Source: Candidatus Microgenomates bacterium
GTDB lineage: Bacteria; Patescibacteriota; Microgenomatia; Daviesbacterales; UBA10151
Length of the DNA stretch: 64,000 bases
NCBI GenBank assembly: GCA_016182045.1
Contig: JACOYE010000008.1
Location: 64,502 to 128,501 of the forward strand
Direction of reading: 5' to 3'
Under the pieces are notes generated by a model that did not search any database, had not been told where the DNA came from, and saw nothing but the letters and a program-made list of their open reading frames with translations. Shown in pieces: positions 26,258 to 59,343 of the stretch (position 1 is its first letter; every line of letters starts with the position of its first letter). Made by a program: the position numbers and the translations under genes.

Positions 26258-26322
26258 GTTATAATCGTTTACGATTACATCGTTCACTTCTTGTAACGTG
26301 AACGTTATAACATAATTATAAT
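26258..26322. ncRNA. structured AT-rich element, copy A (outer stem GTTATAA/TTATAAC enclosing two hairpins; followed by TATAAT)
   Basis: shares the conserved blocks GTTATAATCG / CGATTACATCG / TTCTTGTAACG / GTTATAAC with copy B at 59278-59343; stems differ in sequence but stay complementary. Confidence 0.45.
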
Positions 26323-26335
26323 ACATTTAGAGACT

Positions 26336-27397
26336 TCACCTCAACCCTCCTGTTACCTTAACTTTAGAAAGAAGATCCAAATTCTCCAATACCTCCCCAC
26401 AGCCTCTGACCACAGTTGTGAGCGGATCATCCGCCAAATAAACCGGGATCTTTGTTTCCTCTGCCACCTTTTTATCCAAACCCCCAAGGAGTGCTCCCCC
26501 CCCTGCTAAAAATATTCCCCTCTCCACTATATCTGTTAACAACTCAGGAGGAGTTTCTTCTAAAACTTCTTGGATAACTTGGACAATTTGTGTAACTGTG
26601 GGAGTTAAAGCTTCTCTTATTTCATTAGCCGATACTTTGATGGATTTAGGCAAGCCCGATGCCAAATCACGGCCACGGATAACTGTGGCCATATCATCTT
26701 TACCGTTTAAAGGATAAGCAGAACCAATTTCTATCTTGACCTCCTCGGCAGTTTTTTCCCCAATTAACATGCCATAGCGGGTCCTCATATAATTTACGAT
26801 ATCCTCATCTAACTCATCCCCGGCCACCCTTAAGGATCTATTGATTACCATTCCACCCAAGGAAATGACAGCTATCTCACAAGTGCCTCCTCCGATATCT
26901 ACAATCATCACTCCTTCCGGATCTTCAACCGGAAGGTTGGCTCCTATGGCTGCGGCCATCGGTTCTTCAATCAAAAAAGCCTGCCTGGCACCGGCCACCA
27001 AACAAGCATCCTGAACAGCTCTTCTTTCTACTTCTGTCACCCCTGAGGGAATTCCCACCACCACCCGAGGCTTGGGGATTTTTGGCATGAAGAATCCCCC
27101 TGAGGGTGTTTGATGAACTTTATGGATAAAATAACGGAGCATAGCCTCAGTTGTATCAAAATCGGAAATGACCCCATCTCTTAAAGGTCTGACAGTCTCA
27201 ATGGCAGCTGGGGTTCTTCCCAGCATTCTTTTGGCCTCCCCTCCTATGGCCAGGATCTGTCTGGTTTTTTTATGGAGGGCCACCACAGTCGGTTCTCTGA
27301 TGATAATCCCCTTGCCTTTAACTAAAACTAGGGTATTAACTGTGCCTAAATCTATTCCTATATCATGTGTGAAATATTTCCAAAAGGGGCCTAACAT
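26336..27397 (-). CDS. mreB: rod shape-determining protein MreB
   Basis: 353 aa; actin-fold ATPase motifs (GIDLGT, DIGGGT). Confidence 0.95.
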   Translation of the reverse strand: MLGPFWKYFTHDIGIDLGTVNTLVLVKGKGIIIREPTVVALHKKTRQILAIGGEAKRMLGRTPAAIETVRPLRDGVISDFDTTEAMLRYFIHKVHQTPSGGFFMPKIPKPRVVVGIPSGVTEVERRAVQDACLVAGARQAFLIEEPMAAAIGANLPVEDPEGVMIVDIGGGTCEIAVISLGGMVINRSLRVAGDELDEDIVNYMRTRYGMLIGEKTAEEVKIEIGSAYPLNGKDDMATVIRGRDLASGLPKSIKVSANEIREALTPTVTQIVQVIQEVLEETPPELLTDIVERGIFLAGGGALLGGLDKKVAEETKIPVYLADDPLTTVVRGCGEVLENLDLLSKVKVTGGLR

Positions 27398-27498
27398 GAG
27401 GGAAGTTTAACATAAGAACTTGTCTATCCACAATAACTTACATAGATTTTTAAGATAGTAGGTGATAAAATTTCCTAAGTTTATTTTACAACTATATA

Positions 27499-28077
27499 AT
27501 GAGTAGCCCAGAGAGAAAGGTCATACAGGTAACAAAATTTCTTGCTCAAGAAACTGGCGACATTAGGGGCAAGTTAACCTGCTATCCCACTTCAATAGTC
27601 AATGCTGCTATTGCATTAGAAGTGGTGACTACTGAAGAAGCTCGGATAGCCCACACGGAAATTATTAACCAATTAATAACTATTCCAGACCTTTGGAATG
27701 GTCCAGTGCAAATAATCCGAGCACAGGATACAAGAATTGCAGATATAATTGAAAACTATTTACCGATTAGACTAGGTGTTGATGATTCAGAAATTGGGCG
27801 TTTGATGAACGTCCCAAGAACATATACTCAAATCTATCAGAACCTTCTTGAAAGAAGACAAGCGCATGTAATAATAGTTCCCGATAGGGCTCATGCTTAT
27901 GCAGTTATCGGGGCTAGACAAGAAGGCTTAGCATATATTGACCCGTTTGATCCCTATACAATTCATGTCGGTTCTGAGGAGTGGTTTAAGAAAAATTTTC
28001 AACCAGACAACGATGGATGTTTTGGTACCACTCCTGTCCGGCAACGAGTTAGGGTATTAGGTGTTTATGAGACATGA
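27499..28077 (+). CDS. hypothetical protein (possible papain-like Cys/His fold)
   Basis: 192 aa; ordered Cys (…LTCYPTS…), His (…RAHAYAV…), Asp (…YIDPFDP…) spacing; no confident family. Confidence 0.4.
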   Translation: MSSPERKVIQVTKFLAQETGDIRGKLTCYPTSIVNAAIALEVVTTEEARIAHTEIINQLITIPDLWNGPVQIIRAQDTRIADIIENYLPIRLGVDDSEIGRLMNVPRTYTQIYQNLLERRQAHVIIVPDRAHAYAVIGARQEGLAYIDPFDPYTIHVGSEEWFKKNFQPDNDGCFGTTPVRQRVRVLGVYET

Positions 28078-28080
28078 GGA

Positions 28081-28109
28081 TACATTTTTACGACGGCCGT
28101 CAAATAATG
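28081..28109. repeat. 29-bp direct repeat TACATTTTTACGACGGCCGTCAAATAATG (left copy)
   Basis: identical copy at 28617-28645; the two copies exactly bracket the PaaX-like gene. Confidence 0.7.
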
Positions 28110-28110
28110 A

Positions 28111-28614
28111 CTAGCGTCCGACATTATCTGATTCTAAAACAATTACCCAATCCTCTATTCCCACACTTTTTATAAATTCCCTTAAAACTTTTGTACAGTT
28201 TTTCTTAGTTGCCCAAACACTTTGTTGCCAATGAATAAAACCCCACTTCTTGAGGCTATCCCTCAATAAATTTCTTGCCTGTCTTCTTTTCTCAGGAACA
28301 TCAAATATGACTAGTCTCCACTTTCCATCCCACTTCTCATCTGACAGCTTAATACTTTCCCAAATAGCCTTTTGTCTTCCGTGATCTGTCAGCCGATATG
28401 CCAATTTTTCATCGCTGACAAAATCAATCATTCCTCTTTCCCTTAATCTTTTAACAGCCTGAGCAAGTGAGGCTTTTTTTAATGGTCTATCCCAACCAGC
28501 ACCCCATGCATAGGAGTATGAATGGTGGATTAAATCATCATATCTTACATATCCATCTATAGATTTTTCTAATGTAAGAAGAATAAACTTGGCGATACTA
28601 TTTTTTGTCCCCAT
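28111..28614 (-). CDS. PaaX-family-like transcriptional regulator (short form), paralog 2
   Basis: 167 aa; same architecture as 18742-19245 (…WDGKWRLVIFDVPEKRRQARNLLRDSLKKWGF…QQSVWA…). Confidence 0.6.
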   Translation of the reverse strand: MGTKNSIAKFILLTLEKSIDGYVRYDDLIHHSYSYAWGAGWDRPLKKASLAQAVKRLRERGMIDFVSDEKLAYRLTDHGRQKAIWESIKLSDEKWDGKWRLVIFDVPEKRRQARNLLRDSLKKWGFIHWQQSVWATKKNCTKVLREFIKSVGIEDWVIVLESDNVGR

Positions 28615-28616
28615 AA

Positions 28617-28645
28617 TACATTTTTACGACGGCCGTCAAATAATG
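28617..28645. repeat. 29-bp direct repeat (right copy)
   Basis: exact match to 28081-28109. Confidence 0.7.
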
Positions 28646-28693
28646 TCAACTTGTTTATAAATATAATGTTTGCTAGGATAATCTAAACATATT

Positions 28694-30733
28694 ATGCTTG
28701 ATAAGACTATTACATATTCCTTTTATCTCTTATTTTTCCTAACTCCTCTTTTTTGGACTTCCTTAAATTACGAACTGTTTGAGTATAATAAGATGTTTCT
28801 TACTTATGGATTAACTGTAATCATTGTCGGGGCATGGATTCTAAAAACGATAAACGATAAACGATTAACTTTTAAGCGCACTCCCTTGGATATTCCTCTT
28901 CTACTTTTTTTGGGAGCTAACATTTTTTCCACCATTCTTTCTATTGATACTCACATATCAATTTGGGGCTATTACTCAAGACAAAACGGCGGTCTTTTAT
29001 CTTTGATTGCTTATCTTCTACTCTACTGGGCATTTGTTTCAAATATGGATCTTAAAAAATCTTTGAATCTTTTAAAAGCAGCTTTCTTATCTGGTTTTAT
29101 TATTTCTCTATATGGCATTTTGGAACACTTCGGGGTGTCTCCTTCTTGTGTAATTCTAAGAGGTGAGTTTAATGCCTCATGTTGGGTGCAAGATGTCCAG
29201 GCCAGAGTGTTTGCTACCTTGGGCCAACCAAACTGGATGGCTGCCTATTTGGCCATGCTTATTTTTCCTGCCCTTTATTTCCTCCTCACATCCAAAAGCC
29301 GCATACTACATACTACATACTACATACTACTGATTATTATGTACCTGGCTTTTACCTTCACCTATTCCAGAGGACCAACATTAGGATTAATTGGTGGATT
29401 AGTGGTTTTTATTGGCCTTTATTTTATTCAGAATACTCGGAAAACTCAGAAAGACAGCGAATCAGTGTATCAGAGAATCCGATTATCTGAATTTCTGATT
29501 TCTCAGATATTCCGAGTCCTTCTGAGTTTTCTGGCAATTAACCTCCTTTTTGGGTCTGCCTTAACCAACTTCAGGTTAGTTTCCAAATTTGCCGCACCTG
29601 CCAGACCCGCTATCGCCCTTCCCGCCACAAACACTACTCAGCTTGAAACAGGAGGAACAGAATCCGGCCAGATCCGTTTTATAGTCTGGCAAGGAGCTCT
29701 AGAGATTTTCAAACACTACCCATTATTTGGTTCAGGAGTAGAAACCTTTGCCTATTCTTATTACCAATTCAGACCTGCCGAACACAATCTTACCTCAGAA
29801 TGGGACTTTCTCTATAACAAAGCGCATAACGAATACCTTAATTATTTGGCAACAACCGGAATCTTAGGTCTTAGCGCTTATAGTATAATCATTATAACTT
29901 TTATAATCTTTATACTAAAAAAGTTCAAAAAAGGGAATCTGCTGATTTTAAGCCTCCTTGCTAGCTACATTAGCTATCTAATCTACAACTTCTTCCTCTT
30001 TTCAGTAGTCACGATCGCCATCTTTTTCTATCTTTTCCCAGCCATTGCTTTCGTGGCCATAGACTCCACAAAGCCACTGAAATTTTCTCGACTTCTCACT
30101 TCTCACTTCTCACTTCTCACTTCCTACCTCTATCGTCGTACCTTCTATACCAAAATCGCCAAAGCTTTAGTCATTCTTTCTACCATCTACCTTCTATTTT
30201 CCATCTTCCAGCTCTGGTATGCCGATACCCGTTTTGCCAAGGGACAGAGAGCCTCGGAATTAGGCAATCCAGGACGAGCTTATAATTTACTGACCGAGGC
30301 TTTACAATTAAATGGTAATGAACCATTTTACAGAAGCGAACTTTCCTTTGCTGCAGCAGCTTCGGCTATAGCTCTTGAGGATTCCGAGGCCACCCTATCC
30401 GCAGCCCTAAAAGATGAGGCAATCAGAGAAATAGAGCTGGTCCTTAAAAATAGTCCCCAAAATGTCTCTTTTTGGCGGACAGCCATCAGAACCTATTTTG
30501 AGTTATCAGGCTTGGATAAAAATTACACTGATAAAACTCTTCAGGCTTTAGATCAGACAATCAAGCTGGCCCCAACTGATCCAAAACTATACTACAACAA
30601 GGCTTTAATACTCCAAACAATCAACAAAACTCAAGAAGCCATTAAGTCTTTGGAGAAAGCAATTGAGCTAAAACCGAACTATCAGGAAGCCATCCAGCAG
30701 CTTGAGGAAGCAACTTCATCAGCAAAACCATGA
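28694..30733 (+). CDS. O-antigen ligase/polymerase (Wzy)-like polytopic membrane protein with C-terminal TPR repeats
   Basis: 679 aa; ~12 TM helices with a large periplasmic loop, C-terminal TPR-like helices; contains three internal repeat/IR segments. Confidence 0.65.
   Translation: MLDKTITYSFYLLFFLTPLFWTSLNYELFEYNKMFLTYGLTVIIVGAWILKTINDKRLTFKRTPLDIPLLLFLGANIFSTILSIDTHISIWGYYSRQNGGLLSLIAYLLLYWAFVSNMDLKKSLNLLKAAFLSGFIISLYGILEHFGVSPSCVILRGEFNASCWVQDVQARVFATLGQPNWMAAYLAMLIFPALYFLLTSKSRILHTTYYILLIIMYLAFTFTYSRGPTLGLIGGLVVFIGLYFIQNTRKTQKDSESVYQRIRLSEFLISQIFRVLLSFLAINLLFGSALTNFRLVSKFAAPARPAIALPATNTTQLETGGTESGQIRFIVWQGALEIFKHYPLFGSGVETFAYSYYQFRPAEHNLTSEWDFLYNKAHNEYLNYLATTGILGLSAYSIIIITFIIFILKKFKKGNLLILSLLASYISYLIYNFFLFSVVTIAIFFYLFPAIAFVAIDSTKPLKFSRLLTSHFSLLTSYLYRRTFYTKIAKALVILSTIYLLFSIFQLWYADTRFAKGQRASELGNPGRAYNLLTEALQLNGNEPFYRSELSFAAAASAIALEDSEATLSAALKDEAIREIELVLKNSPQNVSFWRTAIRTYFELSGLDKNYTDKTLQALDQTIKLAPTDPKLYYNKALILQTINKTQEAIKSLEKAIELKPNYQEAIQQLEEATSSAKP
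29303..29330. repeat. (ATACTAC)x4 perfect heptanucleotide tandem repeat inside the Wzy-like CDS
   Basis: read directly; unit length is not a multiple of 3. Confidence 0.85.
29437..29534. repeat. ~100-bp imperfect inverted-repeat (MITE-like) element inside the Wzy-like CDS
   Basis: termini CGGAAAACTCAGAAAG / CCTTCTGAGTTTTCTGG (14/16 complementary), internal TCAGA/TCTGA palindromes; encodes the hydrophilic stretch …NTRKTQKDSESVYQRIRLSEF…. Confidence 0.4.
30084..30127. repeat. (TTCTCAC)n heptanucleotide tandem repeat (4 perfect + degenerate units) inside the Wzy-like CDS
   Basis: read directly; the same repeat occurs inside fmt at 31863-31897. Confidence 0.85.
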
Positions 30734-30993
30734 AAAAGCTTGGTAGAATCATTGCCGAATCCAGATTTAAGAATAGGCCTAAAAATATCGCCTATGAATT
30801 CCAGCAATATGGAGTATACCTTGCAGAATCATTAAATGATACCAAACATTATTCTTTATACATCAAACTGGCCAAAGAAGTGGATAGAAAAATTTTGGAA
30901 GAAGCGCTAAATTTTACAAAGGAGTATTATGGTGCCAAATCCAAAGCTAAAGTATTTATGTGGAGATTGACGCAATTAAGGAAAACTGGCTAA
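30730..30993 (+). CDS. hypothetical protein
   Basis: 87 aa ORF overlapping the Wzy-like stop and the def 5' region; no recognisable family. Confidence 0.3.
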   Translation: MKKLGRIIAESRFKNRPKNIAYEFQQYGVYLAESLNDTKHYSLYIKLAKEVDRKILEEALNFTKEYYGAKSKAKVFMWRLTQLRKTG

Positions 30994-31013
30994 ATTTCTG
31001 TTACAATTCCCTC

Positions 31014-31580
31014 ATGCTTCAAGTAATTAAAGCGCCTGATTCAAGGCTGCGGGTCAAGACAACGGCTGTCAAAAAGATTACTCCTGCTTTAATTAATACC
31101 CTGAAAGAGATGATTAAACTGACCAAAACTTTTAAAGAGCCAGAAGGGGTAGGTTTGGCCTCCACTCAGATAGGTTTGGATGAGAGCTTTTTTGTGGCTC
31201 GCCTCGATGAGTCGGCCCGCCTAGACGCGAGGCTGGCGAAGCGGGCCAAAGATGGTCAAAGATTTATGATGGTGATTAATCCCAAAGTTATATCTATGGG
31301 CAAGCGCAGCAAAAAATACTTTGAAGGTTGTCTGTCCACCCCCAATATTTGGGGTGAGGTCAAAAGAGCTACCCAACTTAAGGTTTCTTATCAGGATGAA
31401 AATGGAAAGATGATCACTAAATCCTTAAAAGGTGTACCTGCCTGGATATTTCAACATGAGATTGACCATCTAAATGGCATTCTTTTCCAGGATAGAGTTT
31501 TGGAGCAAAAGGGTAAGTTTTATAAGTTTACTGGTAAAGATAAAACCGGCACAGATATGTTTGAGGAGGTGACAATTTGA
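31014..31580 (+). CDS. def: peptide deformylase
   Basis: GVGLASTQIG, EGCLS, HEIDHLNG motifs; start placed at MLQVIKAPD (ORF track extends to 30960); carries a GC-rich in-frame insert. Confidence 0.85.
   Translation: MLQVIKAPDSRLRVKTTAVKKITPALINTLKEMIKLTKTFKEPEGVGLASTQIGLDESFFVARLDESARLDARLAKRAKDGQRFMMVINPKVISMGKRSKKYFEGCLSTPNIWGEVKRATQLKVSYQDENGKMITKSLKGVPAWIFQHEIDHLNGILFQDRVLEQKGKFYKFTGKDKTGTDMFEEVTI
31196..31250. repeat. GC-rich palindromic in-frame insert in def (GGCCCGC…GCGGGCC; coding …ARLDESARLDARLAKRA…)
   Basis: read directly; local GC far above the AT-rich surroundings; lies between the conserved Def blocks. Confidence 0.45.
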
Positions 31581-32521
31581 GTATAATTTCCAAACTCAAT
31601 ATGAAAACATTACAACAACCACAAGTTTGGCCCAAGCTTTATGAAACTATTCTGATTAAGGAGGAGATTAAAAAATATTTACATAAGATGCCAAGACACA
31701 ACATAGAAATTGTTTTTTGGGGCTCTGATCCATGGTCTGTCTATGTTCTGAAAGCCTTAGAGGATAATTTTGATGTCAAGGCTATAGTTACTGCTTCGGA
31801 TTCATCTGTAGCAAATTATTTTAAAGGTCCAATCCTAACTCCTGAAAAGCTAGACCATGACTTTCTCACTTCTCACTTCTCATTTCTCACTTCTGATCTA
31901 TTTATAGTTGCCTCCTATGGCAAAATAATTCCACAATCCATCTTAAACATTCCAAAATTCGCAAGTTTAAATGTCCATCCATCACTACTCCCCAAATACA
32001 GAGGTTCATCTCCGGTACCGGCCACCATTCTTATGGGAGACAAAATTACAGGAGTAACCATTATTAAGATGGATGCTAAAGTGGATCATGGGCCGATTGT
32101 TTCTACAAAAGAAATTAGCTTAACAGGACAGGAAAATTCCCTATTTTTGATCAATAAATTATTTCAACTCGGAGCAGATCTGTTAGTAAAAATAATACCG
32201 GATTATATGACAGGCAAAATAAAATTAATGCCCCAAAATCACCTAAAAGCCACATATTGTGAAAGGCTAACCAGAAACAGTGGTTATTTTAAAATTGATA
32301 ATCCTCCATCACCTGAGAAACTGGATAGAATGATCCGGGCATATTATCCCTGGCCGGGAGTTTGGACCCGCTTTCGCCCTTCGGGCTCCAGCGGGCAAGC
32401 CAAAATAGTAAAATTCCTACCAGGTGGGCTACTTCAAATGGAGGGTAAAAAAGCTATATCTTACCAAGACTTCCTCAACGGCTACCCAGATTTTCCGATC
32501 AAAGAGCTTCTCAAAGTATGA
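31577..32521 (+). CDS. fmt: methionyl-tRNA formyltransferase
   Basis: formyltransferase N-domain (NVHPSLLPKYRG) and C-domain; a later start at MPRHNIEIVFWG (31688) is possible; 4-bp overlap with def. Confidence 0.85.
   Translation: MSIISKLNMKTLQQPQVWPKLYETILIKEEIKKYLHKMPRHNIEIVFWGSDPWSVYVLKALEDNFDVKAIVTASDSSVANYFKGPILTPEKLDHDFLTSHFSFLTSDLFIVASYGKIIPQSILNIPKFASLNVHPSLLPKYRGSSPVPATILMGDKITGVTIIKMDAKVDHGPIVSTKEISLTGQENSLFLINKLFQLGADLLVKIIPDYMTGKIKLMPQNHLKATYCERLTRNSGYFKIDNPPSPEKLDRMIRAYYPWPGVWTRFRPSGSSGQAKIVKFLPGGLLQMEGKKAISYQDFLNGYPDFPIKELLKV
31863..31897. repeat. (TTCTCAC)n heptanucleotide tandem repeat inside fmt
   Basis: read directly; encodes …LTSHFSFLTS…, as the Wzy-like copy encodes …LTSHFSLLTS…. 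Confidence 0.85.
32351..32400. repeat. GC-rich palindromic in-frame insert in fmt (CCCGCTTTCGCCCTTCGGGCTCCAGCGGG; coding …RFRPSGSSGQA…)
   Basis: read directly; TTCGCCCTTCGGGC core resembles the 10431-10512 element. Confidence 0.45.
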
Positions 32522-33217: not shown

Positions 33218-33235
33218 ATGTGATAATATAACATA

Positions 33236-34486: not shown

Positions 34487-34601
34487 ACCTTTTAAATGTA
34501 CACTTGAATATACATTTTGTCAATACTTGTTTGTAGGGACCACATTGTAGGAACCACAAAGTTAACACATTACTAAGGAAGTTAAGTAAGTTTTTAGGCT
34601 T

Positions 34602-36119: not shown

Positions 36120-36164
36120 ACTTACCCTATAGTTTACTGAACTTTGTTCCTGAAGTCAAGGACA

Positions 36165-50973: not shown

Positions 50974-51128
50974 TTCCATTTAGTTAATCTGACATTATTT
51001 GATATTATTTGATACTAAAAGAGATACTTTATACGCACATAAGAATTATTTAAAATAAGCTTGCTGATTCAGTTCGCTATTCTTGCCCGGATCAAAGTCA
51101 AATCTTTTGTTTAACCAAAGAGTCAATC

Positions 51129-53390
51129 ATGGCAAGGAAAAGAGCAGGCACAACCAGTTTAACACCTTATCCTCTCAAGGTTGTCCTTCTTTTGATTCAA
51201 TTTATCCTGGTTAAGATTGGTTCCATACCCCTAAATATTGTTAAGTCTTTTATTAACATTATTAATATCTTTATAAAATCACTTCTTAATTTGAAATTAT
51301 CTCGCCACCGTGGCCGGCCCAGAACTACTCCCTTTATTCCCTTTTATTTAAGAAGGCTGAATAAAAATATTTGGGCCAAAATCCCATTGAAAATTAAAGC
51401 CTCTTTTGCCTTTATCATTTTGGTAACCTTAGTCTTTTTATACACCTCATTCATCTTAACTGCAGCATACCAGCTTCCCTCTCCTGACAGGTTGATCACT
51501 CCCCAGCAACCACTCACCACCGAGTTTTATGATCGAAGTGGAAAATTGCTTTACCGTCTTTATGAAGGCAGAAACCGCTACTTAGTCAAACTGGAAGATT
51601 TACCTGTCTTTCTTATTCAAGCCACCATTGCCATTGAGGACAAAAACTTTTACCGCCATCCCGGGTTTGATCCATTGGCCATAGCCAGAGCAGTCTATTA
51701 TAATGTCGCCCAAGGCTACCAAGAAGGAGCATCGACCATCACCCAACAACTGATCAAAAATAGCCTGCTGACGCCCGAAAAGACTATTTCCAGAAAAATT
51801 AAAGAGATCATATTGGCTTTTTGGGCGGAAAGGATCTATTCCAAAAATCAAATTCTTCAGATGTATTTTAATGAAGCTCCGTACGGTGGGCCTGCCTGGG
51901 GCATTGAAGCTGCCTCGCAAACTTATTTTGGTAAAGGGGCCAAAGATCTAGATCTTTCGGAAAGTGCTTTTTTGGCAGGACTACCTGCCTCCCCCACCCA
52001 GTTTTCCCCTTATGGTACAAACCCAACTCTTTCAAAAATCAGGCAGGAACAGGTTCTACAAAGAATGCTGGAAGAAGGATATATAACCCAAACCCAAAAA
52101 GAGCAGGCTTTAAGTCAGCCTTTGGCCTTAAGGCCGCCTGTTAACAATATCCAGGCTCCTCACTTTGTATTTTATGTACGAGATTTATTGGCTCAAAAAT
52201 ATGGACTGAGGGTAATATCTCAAGGGGGACTTAAAATCCAAACCAGCCTGGATTTGTCCTTACAACAAGAGGTGGAAAAAATTGTCTCTTCCGAAATTGA
52301 CAAATTATCTGCTTTAAATGTCAAAAATGGGGCTGCCATGGTTTTGGATGCCAAAACAGGCCAGATTTTGGCTATGATGGGATCAAGAGATTACCGTTAT
52401 CCCGGATTTGGCAACTTTAATGTTACCTTGGCCATCAGACAGCCAGGCTCATCTATCAAACCTATCACCTACGCTACTGCATTTAAAAAGGGATTCTCGC
52501 CCGGAAATACCATCTTAGATACCCCAGCTGTTTTTAAGGATCAATGGGGTAATTCTTATGCACCTGTAAATTATGATGGCAGATTCAGAGGCCCTGTCTC
52601 TATCCGTCAAGCTTTGGCCAGCTCATTTAATGTGCCGGCTGTCAAAATGCTTGCCACAATTGGCCTGGATAGCATGATTCAAACAGCCAAAGATTTGGGG
52701 ATTACCACTTTTGATGATTCTTCTCGCTTTGGTCTATCCTTAACTTTGGGTGGAGGGGATGTCAGGATGATTGATATGATGGGGGTTTATGCCACCCTTT
52801 CTCAACTGGGAGTTTACAAAAAACCTACTCCAATTATTAAAGTTACAGATTCTTCCGGCAATATCTTGGAGGAGTACAAAGATGAGGGCAAACAAGTTCT
52901 AGAAGAAGGTGTTGTCTATCTTATTACCAATATCTTGTCCGATGATCGGGCCCGCAGTTTAGCTTTCGGATCCAATTCCCTTCTTAATTTAGGACCAAAC
53001 GTGGCTGTTAAAACCGGTACTTCTGATAAGAAAAGGGATAATTTGACTTTTGGATACACAACTGATTTTGTGGTTGGGGTTTGGGTTGGTAATCCTGATA
53101 ACTCCCCCATGAATCCCCAACTGACCTCTGGTATTACCGGTGCTGCTCCGATTTGGAATAAGATTGCCAAAATAATGCTTTCCAAAATTCCGAGTAAAGC
53201 ATTTACTCGACCGGAGGGAATTATTGAAATTTCGGTTGATGGCAGAAAAGATTTGGCTATTGCCGGAAATATTCCCAAAGGTTTGGTTAGGGTCAAACCT
53301 GAAGGTGACAAACTGATCTTCTCGGACTCTTTCTCCTCTTATGCCACTTCCTCAGCCCAAGCTGCCATAAAAAATGGACTTACCAATTAA
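51129..53390 (+). CDS. class A penicillin-binding protein (bifunctional GT51 transglycosylase / transpeptidase)
   Basis: 753 aa; GT51 motifs (IAIEDKNFYRHPG, …TITQQL…), transpeptidase SSIKP / SFN / KTGT. Confidence 0.85.
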   Translation: MARKRAGTTSLTPYPLKVVLLLIQFILVKIGSIPLNIVKSFINIINIFIKSLLNLKLSRHRGRPRTTPFIPFYLRRLNKNIWAKIPLKIKASFAFIILVTLVFLYTSFILTAAYQLPSPDRLITPQQPLTTEFYDRSGKLLYRLYEGRNRYLVKLEDLPVFLIQATIAIEDKNFYRHPGFDPLAIARAVYYNVAQGYQEGASTITQQLIKNSLLTPEKTISRKIKEIILAFWAERIYSKNQILQMYFNEAPYGGPAWGIEAASQTYFGKGAKDLDLSESAFLAGLPASPTQFSPYGTNPTLSKIRQEQVLQRMLEEGYITQTQKEQALSQPLALRPPVNNIQAPHFVFYVRDLLAQKYGLRVISQGGLKIQTSLDLSLQQEVEKIVSSEIDKLSALNVKNGAAMVLDAKTGQILAMMGSRDYRYPGFGNFNVTLAIRQPGSSIKPITYATAFKKGFSPGNTILDTPAVFKDQWGNSYAPVNYDGRFRGPVSIRQALASSFNVPAVKMLATIGLDSMIQTAKDLGITTFDDSSRFGLSLTLGGGDVRMIDMMGVYATLSQLGVYKKPTPIIKVTDSSGNILEEYKDEGKQVLEEGVVYLITNILSDDRARSLAFGSNSLLNLGPNVAVKTGTSDKKRDNLTFGYTTDFVVGVWVGNPDNSPMNPQLTSGITGAAPIWNKIAKIMLSKIPSKAFTRPEGIIEISVDGRKDLAIAGNIPKGLVRVKPEGDKLIFSDSFSSYATSSAQAAIKNGLTN

Positions 53391-53415
53391 GATATGATAT
53401 AAAGATTCGACTCTT

Positions 53416-54567
53416 ATGATGAGTCGCATTGAAGCAAAAGGGGGATCTTCCTCCTTGATTAGGTCAATTCAAGCAGGTCTTGGAAGAGGACTTAATTTGA
53501 TAGGTGCCTGGAAAGGATCTCTTTTGAATTCGGAGATTGCTCATACGGTTCTACTCCCCTCTCAACCAAATATTTCAAAATATATACAACAAGTGGAAGC
53601 AGAAGAGGTTATCCTCAATCAGGGAAGTATTGAAATTATAGAAAGATTGGTTGGGCATCCTTTAGATCGAGGGCGGTACCGACAATTGAAACAACTTTTG
53701 GGTGGTAAAAAATCCAACTATCAAAGGATGGAAAAAGACGCTGTTGTTGAAGTCAGACTAATAGATGGTGTGGATATTGCCCGCATTCCCTCTCTTTTCC
53801 CTTTTCCTGAAGAGTTACCCAAAGTAGTAGCTATTACCAGCTTTGACTATTTACTGTCCGATGTTTATCTACATCATTCATTCTCAACTGTAACTTTGGG
53901 AGGTGAACCATTATCTTTATGGGATGATGAGGGTAAAGCATATCCACCTGATGATCTTTTAAAAGATTCTATTGAAGCACTCTATCCAGGAGATTCTATA
54001 AAATTTTCCAACGGTGATGGCTTAACTATGACCACAACAATACTGCCAATACAAGAAGGCAAGCCTATGCCACAATTTGTTTTGGCAGTTGAAAAAAATA
54101 GGGCAGCAAATTTCCAAGCTACAATTGCTGAAGCAAGAAGGAGAGATCTTGCAATCTTATGGAAGGTAAAAGAAGCACATTTGGGGCTGATGGAAGCGCT
54201 ATTTTGGCGAGACCTGAACGATCCGACAAAGCGGGTTTTCATTCAAGATAGAAGCGGCAATCAAACCACCTTTGATAATAAGGAGCTAGGACGATTCCGG
54301 TTTGCCCGCGAAATTGTGCATGGAACATTTGATAGCGTGATTGAATATACCAGAGGAGACCTCGAAGAAGAGTGGCAAAAGGATATGCAGGCTATTAAAA
54401 CGAATGATCCTTTTCCCCGCCACTTTAGACTGCTCACTGTTGGGATTGGTGATAATTATGAAACAGGAAGATCCCTTGCGAAGTACGCTTTGGCTAAAGT
54501 TGAAGGTAAATACATCATCCAGTGTCCACCAGTGGCAGTGACATTTTCTTATAACCAAACTAGATAG
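53416..54567 (+). CDS. hypothetical protein
   Basis: 383 aa; no recognisable family. Confidence 0.45.
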   Translation: MMSRIEAKGGSSSLIRSIQAGLGRGLNLIGAWKGSLLNSEIAHTVLLPSQPNISKYIQQVEAEEVILNQGSIEIIERLVGHPLDRGRYRQLKQLLGGKKSNYQRMEKDAVVEVRLIDGVDIARIPSLFPFPEELPKVVAITSFDYLLSDVYLHHSFSTVTLGGEPLSLWDDEGKAYPPDDLLKDSIEALYPGDSIKFSNGDGLTMTTTILPIQEGKPMPQFVLAVEKNRAANFQATIAEARRRDLAILWKVKEAHLGLMEALFWRDLNDPTKRVFIQDRSGNQTTFDNKELGRFRFAREIVHGTFDSVIEYTRGDLEEEWQKDMQAIKTNDPFPRHFRLLTVGIGDNYETGRSLAKYALAKVEGKYIIQCPPVAVTFSYNQTR

Positions 54568-54583
54568 CTATTTCGGGTCCTCT

Positions 54584-54612
54584 TGACAATCTAATTGGCA
54601 TCTATTACCATT
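54584..54612 (+). promoter_or_regulatory. sigma70-like promoter (TTGACA-17-TACCAT) placing the TSS at the ATG of the next ORF (leaderless)
   Basis: read directly. Confidence 0.35.
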
Positions 54613-54618
54613 GGGAAA

Positions 54619-54921
54619 ATGTCAAATCCAGAAACAGGGTTTCAAGATGGTGATGATGGTGATTTAAATTTTGCAGAAGCTCTTGAACGATATCTCTCCC
54701 TTCCAGGTGATGAACCTCCAAAAGATCCTAGTGAGCCCGGTCCAACAAGGGTGGAGAAATTACCTGCCGGAAATTTTAAAACAAATCCAGATCGATTTTC
54801 TGTACGCCCGGGTGGTGATATCACCAGAAGGAAAATAACAGGAGGCCCTAGTAGAATAAGACCAGGTATACCTCATCGCCTAAGGCGAGATAGAGGCAGG
54901 CAAAATTCTTTTGATTATTAG
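54619..54921 (+). CDS. hypothetical Pro/Gly/Arg-rich protein
   Basis: ATG-initiated form of ORF 54595-54921; GC-rich; no family. Confidence 0.35.
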   Translation: MSNPETGFQDGDDGDLNFAEALERYLSLPGDEPPKDPSEPGPTRVEKLPAGNFKTNPDRFSVRPGGDITRRKITGGPSRIRPGIPHRLRRDRGRQNSFDY

Positions 54922-54933
54922 AATTGGAACATT

Positions 54934-55335
54934 TTAATTTAACACCACCCAGCCTCTTAAATCCTTTTTGGGGATTTTTACAGGTGAGGTAATAAAGCGG
55001 GAAGATTCTCCGATAAAGATTAAGGTACCGTAGCGGGAGTCCGCCTTTTTCTTCCAGTAGGTTTCATCTACAGCCAGTCTCTTTCCATATTTTCCCCTGA
55101 TTTCCCTAATATCCCCTAAATCCAGCCCATCATAAAAGATCACTTTTTTTACTCTAAATTGGCCAATTATATCTCCTCCTGAAGGTTTTATATAAACCAG
55201 ATCTCTGGCAGAAATTTGTCCGAAAGGAGGATCACGTCTTTTAGAAAATCTACTTTCTATAGTCTTTTTACCGGAAAGTATTAAACTCCCCCCTTCCCCC
55301 TTAAAAATAGCCAGATGTTTCCCCATTTGGGGCAA
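54934..55335 (-). CDS. ASCH (PUA-like) domain protein
   Basis: 133 aa; …HLAIFKGEGGSLILSGKKTIESRFSK… matches the ASCH N-terminal pattern. Confidence 0.45.
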   Translation of the reverse strand: MPQMGKHLAIFKGEGGSLILSGKKTIESRFSKRRDPPFGQISARDLVYIKPSGGDIIGQFRVKKVIFYDGLDLGDIREIRGKYGKRLAVDETYWKKKADSRYGTLIFIGESSRFITSPVKIPKKDLRGWVVLN

Positions 55336-55387
55336 TTATAGCATTAAGTAATGACTTGTAAATCTATCTAATCTACTATAGAATCTG

Positions 55388-55909
55388 TTGCAAATGGCAG
55401 AGACTCCATGGAGAAATACTTCGCTTCTTTCTAGGGAAAGAGAGGTCGCAATGAATCCTTCGGATAACCATCATCCAACTCCCCTGCTTGACCATACTCA
55501 ACCACTTACCTTTACTCCTGAGGATGCCTTATATCTGGGGCAGTTGCTTCTCGTTGATAGATTCGGGGAGAAAGAGTGGCAACTAAAACAACTAAAAATA
55601 AATTTATCTGAGTTGGAGCGAATGAAAATTAGAGCTTTGGTGGAAAGACCAGGGGATATTAATATTGACGCTTATTTTGATCCTGAAGGATATTTTAACT
55701 CGCAATGGAAAGGTAGAATACCCGATTTATTAACCCGCTTTGCCGCATTTAATGCTGATGAGCGTCAAGTTTTTTTGGAAAATAATCAAAATGCCCAATT
55801 GATGCTGGGACCTTTATCTCATCTTTCTTTAGGAGAACTGCGATTTTGGCACCAGATCTCGCATAATGATCTTGAATTGGATAGACGTACTAATGAATCT
55901 TCACGCTAA
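55388..55909 (+). CDS. hypothetical protein
   Basis: 173 aa; no family. Confidence 0.4.
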   Translation: MQMAETPWRNTSLLSREREVAMNPSDNHHPTPLLDHTQPLTFTPEDALYLGQLLLVDRFGEKEWQLKQLKINLSELERMKIRALVERPGDINIDAYFDPEGYFNSQWKGRIPDLLTRFAAFNADERQVFLENNQNAQLMLGPLSHLSLGELRFWHQISHNDLELDRRTNESSR

Positions 55910-55945
55910 ATCCAAAGTTGTTTTAAACCCTATCCCTACCCTATT

Positions 55946-56392
55946 TTATTTGGAAGTATCAACAGAACCATTTTCTGTATGTCCATTAGATGAAAACTGT
56001 CCATTCTTATTAAAGACAATGTGCTCCATTTGTCTCATGAGCTGTTTTGCCATAGGATATACAGGGAGATAAACATCGTTTAGTATAACACCTGTCCAGC
56101 ATCCTACCCGTTCAATTATGTCCTTAAATTCTTCTTCTTTAATCTTATCCTGCTCAGTAATATCACCGCCAGCAGCTACACGATCCCACCCTTTTGCTAA
56201 AGCAATTACGTTCTCAAGTACTTCTTCTCTCCGATGTGGCTTAGATCCATTTTGATATGGCCATTCGTTATATGACTCTTCTGAACTTTGTTTCTCTAAT
56301 TCTATGCTGGCCAAAGACCGATTAATACCTTCTTTATTCTCTGTACGCATAGTACCCATATGAGCACCTATCTTTACTATAGGATAATACAA
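55946..56392 (-). CDS. hypothetical protein
   Basis: 148 aa; no family. Confidence 0.4.
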   Translation of the reverse strand: MYYPIVKIGAHMGTMRTENKEGINRSLASIELEKQSSEESYNEWPYQNGSKPHRREEVLENVIALAKGWDRVAAGGDITEQDKIKEEEFKDIIERVGCWTGVILNDVYLPVYPMAKQLMRQMEHIVFNKNGQFSSNGHTENGSVDTSK

Positions 56393-56489
56393 TTATACTC
56401 CCTCTTGTCAAGAAATGCAAATTTAGTAGGTTTTTATATGATGTAATACGAATTTTGAGACCTTTTAAAAAGCCCAAAATGGAGGATAT

Positions 56490-56780
56490 TTGTTGTATAC
56501 TATAAGTATGACTGAGTTAGCGAAATTTTATCCATCAGAACAAAACTTGGGGAAGAATTGCAGTTTTTGGGATTTGAAAGGAAGATTTGCCGGTTGCAAC
56601 TTTCCTAGAGTAGAAATGCAGGGAAGAACCAGTTGCGAGAGGATGATTGATGATGTGTGTTTATTACTAAAAGACGGTCGCAGACCCTCCAGTTTAACTG
56701 AGGAGCAAATCAGAGAATTAAAGTTGAGAATACCTAAGTTTGATGAAAAACACTATATTCCCCCTGGGGATATTTCCTGA
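56490..56780 (+). CDS. hypothetical Cys-containing small protein
   Basis: 96 aa; C…GC…C…C spacing could bind metal. Confidence 0.35.
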   Translation: MLYTISMTELAKFYPSEQNLGKNCSFWDLKGRFAGCNFPRVEMQGRTSCERMIDDVCLLLKDGRRPSSLTEEQIRELKLRIPKFDEKHYIPPGDIS

Positions 56781-56808
56781 ATCCACTGATATTTAGTATA
56801 ATTTATGA

Positions 56809-57264
56809 ATGGAAAGTTCTGAAGTACCAAGTAAAGGAATTAAAGGACTGGAAAAAGTTAAAAGAGGGCTTTCAGAGCTGGGAAACTATTTTAAGGAAAC
56901 ATTCGGTGTAGGTCCTGATAAAGTACCTGCTGAAAAAATTGATCAAGCAGCAGTGGCCAAAGTAATTCTTTATGACACCTTGGCAGAGGGTATGCGTTTG
57001 GGAGATCATTCCCAAATCCCCTTCTCTTTAACTACCCTGCTTGACAACATGGGCCATGTAGTCATGTCCCCAACAGATAATCCCAGAGAGAAATTTCCAG
57101 ATGAATATTTGGCAGTTAGAAGGCAGCTTGATATATTGGTGGGGGACAACATTTTAGTAATTGTTCCTCTTAAGGAACCTGACTCTAATGGAGAAAGACT
57201 TTATTATCAAGTTGTTAACAAAGATGCCTTAAAGAAGATTGCTTCAAAACAATCTCAAAAGTGA
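56809..57264 (+). CDS. hypothetical protein
   Basis: 151 aa; no family. Confidence 0.4.
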   Translation: MESSEVPSKGIKGLEKVKRGLSELGNYFKETFGVGPDKVPAEKIDQAAVAKVILYDTLAEGMRLGDHSQIPFSLTTLLDNMGHVVMSPTDNPREKFPDEYLAVRRQLDILVGDNILVIVPLKEPDSNGERLYYQVVNKDALKKIASKQSQK

Positions 57265-57290
57265 GGGCGGTAACCTTAGTTCTCGACTGC

Positions 57291-57318
57291 TTGACAAAAC
57301 TATAGTATGTGATACTAT
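57291..57318 (+). promoter_or_regulatory. sigma70-like promoter (TTGACA-16-TACTAT) ~12 nt upstream of the FabD-like ATG
   Basis: read directly. Confidence 0.4.
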
Positions 57319-57330
57319 GGTAGCCTCATT

Positions 57331-58335
57331 ATGGTAGAAACAGCAACACTAAAAAGACCTGCCTCATCAACTGCTGAGTCTTTGGAAATACCAGCTGCCA
57401 TTCTTTTCCCAGGACAAGGACTTCCACCAAAAGAGATTTGTTCCTACTATCAATTATTAACTGAACTAAATCCTGCCTTAACCACAAGGTATCTATCTTT
57501 GGCCCAGCAAGCACTGGAAAAAATCTCAGGTTCCCCCAGTTTTAACATTGAGACAGCTTTAAAAGATGCATCTTCACCTGATTTTAGAAAAACCTCCTTT
57601 GTCCAACCGGTAGTGTATTCTTTAAGTGTGCTCGCTTATGAAATAATGCGACCCAGATTAAGAGAGAGGAATATTATTCCCGATGTTATGGCCGGACACA
57701 GCCTTGGTGAATATTCTGCCATGACCGCGGCAGGTGTTTTTCCCTTCGAGGAAGGAATTGAAATTGTCACCTATAGAGGTAAGGTTATGCAAGAAGCTTG
57801 TGATGAGAATGAAAGTAGTCTAACCAGCATCAGCGGTCTAAATTTAGAAACGGTTCGAGATGAGATTTGCTTCCAAACTGGGGCAGAAATAGCTTTAGTT
57901 AATGCTCCTGATTTAATAGTGGTTGGTTCCCGTCCTGATCAAATTCCAAAAATTAAGGCAGTGGCTGATCAAATAGCAGGACAAAGTGTGAGGGTTGTAA
58001 CACTTGAGACAGCGGGAGCCTTCCATACACCTTTTATGATACCAGCGGCCGTAAATCTGGCAAGATTTTTAGCAAATTATGAATTTACCGATCCGCAATA
58101 CCGATTCGTCAATAATTATACAGGAGGTTTAGTAGAAAGCGGTGTAACTTTACGTGATCATTCATCAGAGAGTATGACCAGGCCAGTTTGGTGGGCTAAA
58201 TCTTTACAAACTATGAAAGAGTTAGGGAGTAAGACCTTTTTAGAATCAGGCCCAGGTGTGTCACTGAAACAAATAAATAAGAGAAATGGTATTGGAGAGG
58301 ATCAAACCAAAAACATAGTTGATATTTCCCCATAA
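57331..58335 (+). CDS. fabD: malonyl-CoA:ACP transacylase-like acyltransferase
   Basis: 334 aa; ILFPGQG and GHSLGEYSA motifs. Confidence 0.75.
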   Translation: MVETATLKRPASSTAESLEIPAAILFPGQGLPPKEICSYYQLLTELNPALTTRYLSLAQQALEKISGSPSFNIETALKDASSPDFRKTSFVQPVVYSLSVLAYEIMRPRLRERNIIPDVMAGHSLGEYSAMTAAGVFPFEEGIEIVTYRGKVMQEACDENESSLTSISGLNLETVRDEICFQTGAEIALVNAPDLIVVGSRPDQIPKIKAVADQIAGQSVRVVTLETAGAFHTPFMIPAAVNLARFLANYEFTDPQYRFVNNYTGGLVESGVTLRDHSSESMTRPVWWAKSLQTMKELGSKTFLESGPGVSLKQINKRNGIGEDQTKNIVDISP

Positions 58336-58357
58336 CTTTTGTTATACTTGACAAAGT

Positions 58358-58381
58358 GGGTCGAATAATCGACCCTTTTTT
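58358..58381 (+). terminator. Rho-independent terminator-like hairpin GGGTCGA-ATAA-TCGACCC + TTTTTT
   Basis: read directly; 22 nt after the FabD-like stop, 6 nt before secE. Confidence 0.5.
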
Positions 58382-58386
58382 AATAA

Positions 58387-58581
58387 ATGCCCAACATTAT
58401 TTCATTTTTTAAAGAAGTTAGGGAAGAGTTAAATAAGGTGGCCTGGCCCACCAGGGAACAAACTGTCCGCTATACCATTTTGGTGGTTTTAGTAGCAGTT
58501 GTGGTGGGATTATTCTTAGGAGGCCTGGATTATATCCTAACTGCTCTCACCTCTTTTATATTAGGAAAATATGGACGATAA
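58387..58581 (+). CDS. secE: preprotein translocase subunit SecE
   Basis: 64 aa; amphipathic N-term (KEVREELNKVAWPTREQ) + single TM; immediately upstream of nusG. Confidence 0.75.
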   Translation: MPNIISFFKEVREELNKVAWPTREQTVRYTILVVLVAVVVGLFLGGLDYILTALTSFILGKYGR

Positions 58582-59275
58582 GAATCAGAACAACTCAGAA
58601 AACTCAGATAAATCAGAAGATCAGATTGTCACTGAGTCAGAAAGCCAGAACGAGCAAGTATCTGACACTCTGGTTTCCTCTGATACCTCTGATTCTTCTG
58701 GCACACCGAGTCCTTCTGAGTCTTCCGAAAAACCAACCAAACCTGACAATCCCAATGCCAAATGGTATGTAGTCCATACCTATTCCGGGCATGAAAATAA
58801 AGTGGCAGCCACCTTAAAGCAAAGAATTGAATCGGAACATTTGGAAAATAAAATTTTTGAAGTATTAGTACCCATGCAGGATAAAATTGAGATCAAATCC
58901 GGTAAAAAGATGACTGTCAAGGAAAAAATCTTTCCCGGTTATATTCTGGTAAAAATGCTCCTGGATGATCAATCCTGGCTGGCGGTCAGAACTACCCAGG
59001 GAGTGACTGCCTTTGTGGGCATGGGTAATAAACCCACTCCTATTTCCGATCAGGAAGTGCAAACCATAGTTAAGTTTACTCAAGAGGAAGCCCCAACTTT
59101 CAAACAAGTGTTTGCTACCGATGATACTGTTAAAATAATAGACGGTCCGTTTGCCGAGTTTATCGGAAAAGTGGATTCTGTAGATCAGGAAAAAGGAAAG
59201 GTCAGGGTTCTGGTCTCCATATTTGGTCGCGAGACACCAGTGGAATTAGATTTTTTGCAAGTGCAGAAAATATAA
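58571..59275 (+). CDS. nusG: transcription termination/antitermination factor NusG (with ~60-aa acidic Ser/Asp-rich N-terminal extension)
   Basis: NGN domain (KWYVVHTYSGHENKV) and KOW domain (…GKVDSVDQEKGKVRVLVSIFGR…). Confidence 0.9.
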   Translation: MDDKNQNNSENSDKSEDQIVTESESQNEQVSDTLVSSDTSDSSGTPSPSESSEKPTKPDNPNAKWYVVHTYSGHENKVAATLKQRIESEHLENKIFEVLVPMQDKIEIKSGKKMTVKEKIFPGYILVKMLLDDQSWLAVRTTQGVTAFVGMGNKPTPISDQEVQTIVKFTQEEAPTFKQVFATDDTVKIIDGPFAEFIGKVDSVDQEKGKVRVLVSIFGRETPVELDFLQVQKI

Positions 59276-59277
59276 CC

Positions 59278-59343
59278 GTTATAATCGCTCTGCGATTACA
59301 TCGCGACGCTTCTTGTAACGCGTTGCGTTATAACAATTATAAT
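59278..59343 (+). ncRNA. structured AT-rich element, copy B (same architecture as 26258-26322), directly upstream of rplK
   Basis: conserved blocks as in copy A; stem sequences CGCGACGC/GCGTTGCG (one G-U, favouring + strand RNA) replace CGTTCAC/GTGAACG of copy A. Confidence 0.45.

Follow-up and report, generated by a model that had tools for sequence, protein, structure and literature searches.

A short, probably mobile insertion element with a one-strand hairpin at TATAA sites in Microgenomates bacteria

The elements of the IS200/IS605 family recognise a transposon-adjacent motif (e.g., TTTAT), insert downstream of it without duplicating the target, excise without leaving a scar and have given rise to gene-less derivatives (PMC10055086). 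In the ISGst elements the adjoining pentanucleotides are TTTAT and TTCAT (PMC10055086). Here we describe two short sequences, copy A and copy B, in a stretch of 64,000 nucleotides (the window) of contig JACOYE010000008.1 from a Candidatus Microgenomates bacterium. Both are probably copies of a dispersed non-autonomous mobile insertion element of Microgenomates bacteria, which belong to the Candidate Phyla Radiation (CPR); this judgement covers the identity as a mobile insertion element and not a single-strand mechanism. As read from the aligned copies, the target and the orientation of the element are fixed, and its hairpin H2 is conserved on one strand.

The gene-less IS200/IS605 derivatives, known as palindrome-associated transposable elements (PATEs; HUH/Y1 TnpA), are like our element short, non-coding and strand-asymmetric with conserved hairpins of variable stem sequence. 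Like it, they always lie 3′ of a fixed AT-rich pentanucleotide, which is TATAA in our case, carry a similar motif at their own 3′ end and keep a fixed orientation. They also leave scarless empty sites, with which the single TATAA/TATAG of our empty alleles is compatible without being decisive. In agreement with this, the sequences described here are inserted 3′ of a fixed pentanucleotide in one orientation and possess the strand-specific hairpin H2. However, the unit of 41–44 nt is much shorter than the described pairs of left and right ends, the adjacent motif and the terminal motif are the same, the candidate hairpins overlap, and no tnpA was found by Pfam in the window or by the motif scan of 441 kb given below. 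Of the features of a miniature inverted-repeat transposable element (MITE) in the general sense, our element shows small, non-coding and dispersed copies and presence/absence polymorphism. Correia elements are small promoter-bearing repeats upstream of genes with sigma-70 −10-like ends, which insert into each other and form hairpins when transcribed (PMC10969869). They share with our element that they are small non-autonomous repeats, lie mostly just upstream of genes and have −10-like ends, but Correia elements comprise 100–200 bp with long true inverted repeats, duplicate TA and reach more than 100 copies per genome. In contrast, our element has a core of 41–44 nt and a low copy number, the length of the indels excludes a TA duplication and the inverted-repeat pairing fails. 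The Rickettsia palindromic elements (RPEs) form in-frame insertions within conserved protein-coding genes of a reduced genome (PMC10969869). The likeness is that of palindromic selfish DNA surviving in frame inside conserved genes; RPEs are, however, ∼100–150 bp long, have no sequence similarity to our element and are not tied to TATAA or to promoters, whereas most copies here are intergenic and promoter-proximal.

Repetitive extragenic palindromes (REPs) and the REPINs formed from them are imperfect palindromes of 20–40 nt with compensatory stem variation which are recognised as single-stranded DNA by an HUH enzyme (RAYT). REPs are marked by a 5′ tetranucleotide of the GTAG type, number tens to hundreds, lie for the most part behind genes and are often arranged as inverted doublets; we know of no report of REPs at a fixed pentanucleotide or inside open reading frames (ORFs). 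Our element lacks the GTAG, has a low copy number and occurs within ORFs. The attC sites of integrons (57–141 nt) are defined by their folded single strand, in which the terminal boxes pair, some bases bulge out and the central spacer stays unpaired, and when our element is drawn as one long hairpin it looks superficially similar. However, its ends TATAAT...GTTATAA do not fit RYYYAAC / GTTRRRY, attC has nothing that corresponds to the helix between the variable segments var2 and var3 described below, our sites are scattered, and the window contains neither an integrase nor a cassette array. Finally, identical promoter segments upstream of unrelated genes have reportedly been named ‘mobile promoters’ by Matus-Garcia et al. 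in 2012. In both cases the same short promoter-associated sequence stands before non-homologous genes; the ‘mobile promoters’ are, however, a descriptive category without a mechanism, whereas in our case the insertion boundaries, the target and the conserved structure are defined. A full-text literature search yielded no paper on MITE-like elements in CPR bacteria. The element is previously undescribed and is unusual in its small size, its specificity for the −10 core, its low copy number and its spread across Microgenomates lineages.

An earlier note on this DNA had described copies A and B as a structured element that occurs twice, with four shared blocks (GTTATAATCG, CGATTACATCG, TTCTTGTAACG, GTTATAAC) in conserved order. 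Both copies, their positions and the order of the blocks were confirmed; the corrected limits are given in Table 1. The 11-mer CGATTACATCG occurs only twice in the window, where 0.23 matches are expected if one mismatch is allowed; the 10-mer GTTATAATCG by itself is no rarer than expected by chance. A covariance model, whose training set includes both window copies, scored 82.2 bits for copy B and 73.5 bits for copy A over the 64 kb, and the next match reached 18 bits. Within the window the model returns only these two copies. At other loci it detected a diverged member, TTTATAATCGCAAGATTACATCTTGCTTTTGTAACTTAAAGCAAGTTATAAA (L021 714-765), and an interrupted unit which abuts an intact unit upstream of a Mur-ligase gene.

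Further copies were collected with the pattern GATTACATCG-N3-10-TTCTTGTAACG, in which 21 bases have to match exactly. A scan of one genome per species (185,579 species) matched 15 loci, of which 14 are real, and a scan of a metagenome collection matched 39 loci, of which 38 are real; the chance matches of the pattern (n=3) are without any flanking features. The 55 further copies and the two of the window add up to 57 copies with 33 distinct sequences at ∼40 sites. The hosts are Daviesbacteria, Levybacteria and groundwater contigs; judged by their titles, the real genome loci are mostly from Daviesbacteria, one is from Levyibacteriota, one from the ‘Microgenomates group’, and three carry automated ‘Gammaproteobacteria’ titles. 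All copies follow the plan xATAAT-CG-var1-CGATTACATCG-var2-TTCTTGTAACG-var3-CG-TTATAAx, and the real loci conserve xATAATCG on the 5′ side and CGTTATAA on the 3′ side. As these flanks were not contained in the search pattern, a chance resemblance is ruled out. Viral contigs, phage records and plasmid records yielded no copy. The same element sequence is found, base for base, at different loci, and the genes downstream are unrelated: AAA/DUF4143, CofD, a response regulator, a Mur ligase, Obg, a ManC-like nucleotidyl transferase, a CofE-like ligase, PBP1, an amidohydrolase, L11 and tRNA-Ile. What had appeared as a two-copy element is a dispersed family that stands before unrelated genes, before a tRNA and antisense within ORFs.

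That the element is inserted DNA is shown, at the level of sequence comparison, by empty and filled alleles, by in-frame insertions in conserved genes and by arrays. Copy B lies between nusG (58571-59275) and rplK (59357-59785). The L11 protein of the window has an identical match from a ‘Candidatus Microgenomates bacterium’, and the nearest relatives found by homology search with L11 are Daviesbacteria. In the closest relative obtained, L001 (L11 94% identical), the end of nusG and the rplK promoter-proximal boxes are as in the window and the element is absent; the alignment has a single clean gap of 49 nt between flanks that are ∼93% identical. L001 also has the equivalent of 59334-59356, differing at two substituted bases and by an indel of 1 nt in the A run that precedes the ATG. 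Since the AATTATAAT / TATACT stretch to 59343-59356 is thus present in a relative without the element, it is native rplK sequence, and the part that had been assigned to copy B past 59333 does not belong to the element. In six further relatives (L11 85–90% identical) the nusG–rplK spacers are unrelated. The suggestion that copy B is part of a leader or promoter of the L11 operon could therefore not be upheld; with the site empty in the closest relative and the spacers unrelated in six others, copy B is, as judged from these alignments, no conserved leader but an insertion specific to this lineage, placed after nusG and ahead of the rplK promoter boxes. Its effect on rplK is probably mild, because the native boxes AATTATAAT and AATTATACT persist downstream of the insertion.

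A second pair of alleles is found within a GCS2-family gene (L033), where the element lies antisense and accounts for 16 extra residues that are absent from five homologues (65–89% identical). The filled allele CTTTTATAA / TCG...GCGTTAAAA / TCACT differs from the empty allele TTTTTATAG / TCACT of L058 by exactly 48 nt, that is, a 43-nt core plus 5 nt or 16 codons in frame. Both empty alleles (L001 and L058) have a single TATAA/TATAG. Three more ORFs contain an antisense element in the sole frame free of stop codons: the tail of a PNPase gene, a gene of a Wzy-type membrane protein and that of a helical protein (L057) whose family was assigned by eye. The PNPase genes compared with the first (L027) are too diverged at this place to show an empty site. 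The Wzy-type protein (L032) is 71% identical to that of the window ORF 28694-30733, and its gene has the same insertion in three independent metagenomes; the copy is a short-class (class-1) unit with two extra bases, which gives 48 nt, and it corresponds to a variable loop of the window orthologue without a clean indel. A protein search for in-frame insertions with the encoded peptide in tripled form gave no match at an E-value of 10 or below. In the same Wzy-type ORF of the window a stretch of 30 nt (29892-29921, TTATAACTTTTATAATCTTTATACTAAAAA) is 87% identical to the rplK promoter-proximal sequence 59328-59357, and the L032 orthologue has an insertion of 8 residues exactly at this stretch. 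This likeness could be due to chance in AT-rich I/F/L codons or could mark a TATAA-rich hot spot.

In addition, the element forms head-to-tail arrays with periods of 45, 47 and 48 nt in which adjoining units share one TATAA. The array upstream of murE is heterologous with one long-stem and one short-stem unit; as its units belong to different classes, they were inserted separately. Interruptions occur within two copies: in L008 (6388-6455) 28 nt replace a G within the conserved loop (TTCTT[...]TAACG), and in L029 (4158-4228) 17 nt are inserted in var3. We also observed a second short repeat, AGAAAACCG(C/T)GGACT(T/C)A(C/A)AAATC(C)GCGGAAGTT followed by TATAA, which directly adjoins the element at two unrelated loci (L011, upstream of the element at ∼291-325 on the minus strand, and L021 1145-1185). 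In L021 it truncates the third unit of an array; read on the opposite strand it has a GC stem followed by TTTTCT and looks terminator-like.

The boundaries of the element can be read from the alignment. The sequence xATAA precedes the core in 57 of 57 copies, x being T in most distinct sequences and G or C in three. On the 5′ side the base before ATAA and its predecessor are variable and the T after TATAA is invariant, and on the 3′ side CGT never changes and the base following TATAA does; it follows that the core is T-CG...CG-T and that the repeat is TATAA. Relative to the asymmetric TATAA every copy points the same way, and both TATAA copies decay about equally. Each insertion adds 45–49 nt, and the indels of 48 and 49 nt at the two empty sites equal the core plus 5 nt. 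A TA target duplication of the IS630/Correia type was rejected, as it predicts indels of 50 and 51 nt. The flanking TATAA is compatible with a true 5-bp duplication as well as with an adjacent motif combined with an identical terminal motif.

In most promoter copies the 3′ TATAAT lies 6–11 nt before the ATG (at most 22 nt in the rest), and it lies 9 nt before tRNA-Ile. Shine–Dalgarno motifs are rare and mostly weak (11 of the 57 genes of the window), and many genes of the window have TTGACA-17-TATAAT-like promoters that end 5–9 nt before the ATG (e.g., 18742, 28111, 39468, 57331, 60757, 61321, 63276). These sequence features suggest that leaderless or near-leaderless mRNAs are widespread in this Microgenomates genome. 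An extended −10 motif (TGn) stands before the 5′ box in eight of the 33 distinct copies, with ∼2 expected, and a −35 box (at most two mismatches) 16–18 nt upstream of the 5′ TATAAT at nine of 40 sites. Since the excess of −35 boxes is weak, the 5′ box is generally no complete promoter; the copy in L004 has a perfect TTGACA-17-TATAAT at this box. The internal TTCTTG / TTGTAA was considered as −35 region for the 3′ box and rejected, the spacing of 9–13 nt being wrong for sigma-70. A gene starts in sense direction within 25 nt downstream at 17 sites, compared to four sites with a divergent gene; this excess is expected if the orientation of the element is fixed to TATAA, as the −10 box itself is oriented.

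Among the proposed structures the hairpin H2, in which CG and var2 pair with var3 and CG, is borne out by the 33 distinct copies: 98% of its positions are paired, and four pairs have changed on both sides. One position occurs with five pair types (AU 14, GU 12, UA 4, GC 1 and UG 1). When the partner is shifted by 1–3 columns, the pairing of the tested H1+H2 fold falls to 13–42%. Over 22 distinct arm combinations H2 comprises 144 Watson–Crick pairs, 14 G·U, 2 A·C and 6 other mismatches. The earlier note had taken a single G-U pair in copy B to favour the plus strand, and this argument generalises: with 14 G·U against 2 A·C the alignment indicates that H2 is selected on the plus strand as drawn. 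The claim that the variable segments keep their pairing holds for H2 but has no independent support for hairpin 1 (H1), which has one covarying pair that follows the two sequence classes (CGT..ACG vs. CGC..GCG) and three A·C mismatches. The supposed outer stem GTTATAA/TTATAAC turned out to be a direct repeat of the nearly self-complementary target, in which TTATAA looks inverted, and not a demonstrated helix.

H1+H2 is the minimum-free-energy fold of the 57-nt copy B element, but not of the 81-nt stretch around it. The consensus of RNAalifold is a different fold, Hm+H3, which is mutually exclusive with H1+H2 and of nearly equal energy. Hm consists of the end of var1 and CGAT, the loop TAC, and ATCG with the start of var2, and H3 of TTGTAACG..CGTTATAA; Hm+H3 has zero unpaired cells at columns 15-27 and 11-31. 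The single long hairpin, the minimum-free-energy fold of copy A, was rejected as the conserved fold: it is 90% paired overall, but its variable middle is unpaired (columns 12-48 in 27 of 33 copies, columns 13-47 in every copy). The diverged member in L021 keeps the pairing of var1 with var2 and of var2 with var3 by means of a wholly different stem (GCAAG / CTTGC / GCAAG). From these comparisons the robust layout is X-X′-X (var1/var2/var3), whose middle segment is able to pair with either neighbour, and only the X′:X(3′) helix, that is H2, has covariation beyond the split into two classes. A scan for intrinsic terminators found none at either window copy and no terminator-like T run; TTATAAT follows the stem.

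As the element has no coding capacity, it would have to be mobilised in trans. We suggest that the top strand, folded as single-stranded DNA, is recognised by an enzyme acting in trans, which inserts it on the 3′ side of TATAA. The flanking TATAA would then be the adjacent motif and the terminal TATAA a motif encoded by the element, and the apparent duplication need not be a true target-site duplication. TATAA being the core of the −10 hexamer, the element would land preferentially in −10 boxes. The upstream half of the original promoter would stay with the 5′ TATAA copy, and with the 3′ TATAA copy at the native distance to the start codon the insertion would be tolerated. Inside ORFs the element would survive only if the added length is a multiple of three, and this in the single antisense frame that is free of stop codons. 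That the underlying mechanism is of the IS200/IS605-like ‘peel-and-paste’ type is a tentative proposal, which in our analysis is possible rather than probable.

Several observations weigh against a mobile element or against this way of moving it. Pfam revealed no transposase, HUH enzyme or recombinase among all 57 predicted genes of the window, and a crude scan for IS200-TnpA motifs found nothing in 441 kb of family loci. To our knowledge, a core of 41–44 nt is far below any functional pair of IS200/IS605 ends. The two ‘ends’ overlap in the alternative folds, with several candidate hairpins in competition, and the G·U asymmetry fits RNA as well as single-stranded DNA. Empty sites at the nucleotide level number only two, and the search pattern itself accounts for part of the invariance of the two internal blocks, though not for the conservation of the 5′ ATAATCG and the 3′ CGTTATA. 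With two copies in 64 kb and one or two exact-pattern copies per metagenome-assembled genome, contigs of 0.3–1 Mb included, the copy number per genome looks low and unlike that of burst-type MITEs. Finally, in four genomes (L007, L017, L008 and L011) the element lies 6–7 nt before the ATG of a Mur-ligase gene, assigned by Pfam in L007 and by N-terminal similarity in the other three. The stem classes differ between these copies, and that of L008 is a two-unit array. The shared position could point to long retention for a function; the Mur-ligase copies could represent a repeatedly targeted hot spot or an old retained insertion.

The readings that compete with a mobile insertion element have to account for the same data. 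The earlier note had considered a regulatory leader, a small RNA or a DNA cruciform, and as the identity of the element these are less well supported than a mobile insertion. Read as a cis-regulatory RNA, the element would be a small RNA or a structured 5′ leader whose transcription starts from the 5′ TATAAT box and in which H2, with or without an Hm/H3 switch, controls stability, termination or translation of the downstream gene. Conserved pairing with G·U on the sense strand only, the predominance of sense orientation before genes, the two near-iso-energetic exclusive folds that resemble a switch and the four Mur-ligase genes all speak for it. A transcript start inside the element is also plausible, as the 5′ box is often an extended −10 and sometimes has a −35 (L004; in copy A TTTTCA-17-TGtTATAAT). 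We nevertheless consider such an RNA improbable as the identity of the element. The rplK site is without it in the closest relative and in six others, so that a ribosomal-protein leader would lack conservation at its own site, the downstream genes share no function, and the overall −35 signal upstream of the 5′ box is weak. The antisense copies within ORFs would give an mRNA that carries the mispaired complement, copy A is opposed to both of its neighbours, tandem arrays exist, and a terminator-like T run is lacking at both window copies. In addition, Rfam has no matching model: in the window only tRNAs reach the gathering score, and at permissive thresholds the best matches to the element have 21 bits compared to a cut-off of 90. 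A role at the RNA level, as a 5′ leader with H2, could coexist with mobility and would account for the G·U pairs; as the primary identity it is excluded by the antisense copies in ORFs, the unrelated neighbours and the empty orthologous sites.

The main mechanistic rival shares the mobile identity and differs only in the mechanism: a conventional double-strand MITE, moved by a DDE transposase, with imperfect terminal inverted repeats (TCG-var-CGATTACA / TGTAACG-var-CGT) and a true 5-bp duplication of TATAA. The added length of core plus 5 at both empty sites, the roughly inverted ends with their largely paired long hairpin in copy A, the equal decay of both TATAA copies and a behaviour like that of Correia elements and RPEs (PMC10969869) agree with it. 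It predicts, however, that var1 pairs with var3, and this pairing fails in most copies, whereas that of var2 with var3 is conserved. The asymmetry of the mismatches depends on the strand, every copy points the same way at an asymmetric target, no parent IS is known, and duplex synapsis of two ends ∼12 bp apart would probably be hard. On balance we regard this mechanism as rather unlikely. Far less credible is a double-stranded operator or promoter module bound by the transcription factor of a regulon. The palindromic boxes TTATAATCG-N4-CGATTACAT and CTTGTAACG-N4-CGTTATAAT would indeed form two similar inverted repeats with centres ∼32 bp or three helical turns apart, each overlapping a −10-like box in a promoter-proximal location. 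The spacers of such a module should vary freely, yet var2 complements var3 with compensatory changes and strand-specific wobble. The copies in ORFs and arrays and the absence from the site in close relatives do not fit either, and the functionally unrelated downstream genes rule out the idea of a regulon. The resemblance of two AT-rich promoter-like sequences by mere chance can practically be dismissed: the region is rich in TATAAT-like boxes and GTTATAATCG alone is common enough, but the covariance scores (82 and 73 bits, the next match reaching 18) and 55 further copies with conserved flanks that were not searched for have already refuted it.

Table 1. Positions of the element and its parts in the window
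Feature	Position	Strand	Remarks
Copy A, element proper (TATAA + core + TATAA)	26260-26310		
Copy A, 5′ TATAA	26260..26264	+	target copy or element-adjoining motif; TGtTATAAT with TTTTCA 17 nt upstream is promoter-like
Copy A, core, 41 nt, short-stem class	26265..26305	+	T-CG-var1-CGATTACATCG-var2-TTCTTGTAACG-var3-CG-T; aligns with 32 other distinct copies
Copy A, hairpin H2	26281..26304	+	CGTTCAC 26281-26287, loop TTCTTGTAAC 26288-26297, GTGAACG 26298-26304; 7 Watson–Crick pairs
Copy A, 3′ TATAA (second target copy)	26306..26310	+	next base C, giving TATAAC; no ORF start downstream on the same strand
Copy B, element proper (TATAA + core + TATAA)	59280-59333		
Copy B, 5′ TATAA	59280..59284	+	4 nt past the nusG stop codon; single in the empty allele of relative L001
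Copy B, core, 44 nt, long-stem class	59285..59328	+	core + one TATAA = 49-nt gap relative to L001
Copy B, hairpin H2	59302..59327	+	CGCGACGC 59302-59309, loop TTCTTGTAAC 59310-59319, GCGTTGCG 59320-59327; 8 pairs including one G·U
Copy B, 3′ TATAA	59329..59333	+	sequence checked
Native rplK promoter-proximal sequence, outside the element	59334..59356	+	C AATTATAAT AATTATACT AAAA before the ATG at 59357
Candidate hairpin H1	59282..59298 (B), 26262-26277 (A)	+	TAATCGC-TCT-GCGATTA in B
Alternative fold Hm	59291-59305 (B), 26270-26284 (A)	+	
Alternative fold H3	59313-59333 (B), 26291-26310 (A)	+	

The gene context that had been proposed for the two copies was confirmed by Pfam, which identified MreB, HAD, DHO_dh, SecE, NusG, L11 and L1 in the expected arrangement. 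Copy A lies between mreB (26336-27397, minus strand) and the gene pair of a HAD hydrolase and a dihydroorotate dehydrogenase (minus strand); it is on the plus strand and hence opposed to both neighbouring genes. Between copy A and the HAD gene we noticed remnants of a phd/doc toxin–antitoxin pair (25989-26243, minus strand), with the family judged by eye: an ORF of 27 aa with the Fic/Doc motif HPFLDGNKRT, an ORF of 26 aa resembling the N-terminus of Doc and a frame without start codon that resembles the C-terminus of an antitoxin. Copy A is an orphan insertion between mreB and this decayed phd/doc pair.

Two other features of the window are worth recording. Two paralogous proteins of 167 aa with a PaaX_M/Cas2-like domain are encoded on the minus strand (28111..28614 and 18742..19245), and direct repeats with a short palindrome flank each gene. 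The repeats of the first gene (28080-28109 and 28616-28645) are identical at 30 of 30 positions with the core GACGGCCGTC, those of the second (18712-18740 and 19250-19278) are 76% identical with the core CGATCG, and the upstream repeat copy overlaps the TTGACA/−10 promoter of the gene itself. These repeats may mark out a cassette or may be an autoregulatory operator present in duplicate, once at either end. Furthermore, 71 nt at 63793-63863 are 77% identical to the 3′ end of rplA (60609-60679), a similarity suggestive of a second L1-like segment of coding sequence beyond the subtilase gene.

For annotation, the labels L11 leader or small RNA should be avoided for this sequence. The boldest version of our proposal, which we consider doubtful, is that the element represents the smallest self-contained bacterial mobile unit so far, a folded single strand of 41–44 nt which is inserted in one orientation at TATAA by an enzyme of CPR bacteria. 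If this were true, the −10 box would be restored on both sides of each insertion and promoters would be rewired without being killed. A leaderless gene would thereby gain a structured leader of ∼45 nt, and the two exclusive folds of the X-X′-X layout might be co-opted as a promoter-proximal switch. The element can also add 16 residues to conserved proteins. The genomes of CPR/Patescibacteria are tiny, and an element of 41–44 nt would shift the minimum size of mobile DNA downwards. Through the mobilising enzyme a new minimal system for the insertion of single-stranded DNA could come to light, and the element itself would offer a handle on the rewiring of promoters and 5′ leaders in uncultured bacteria.

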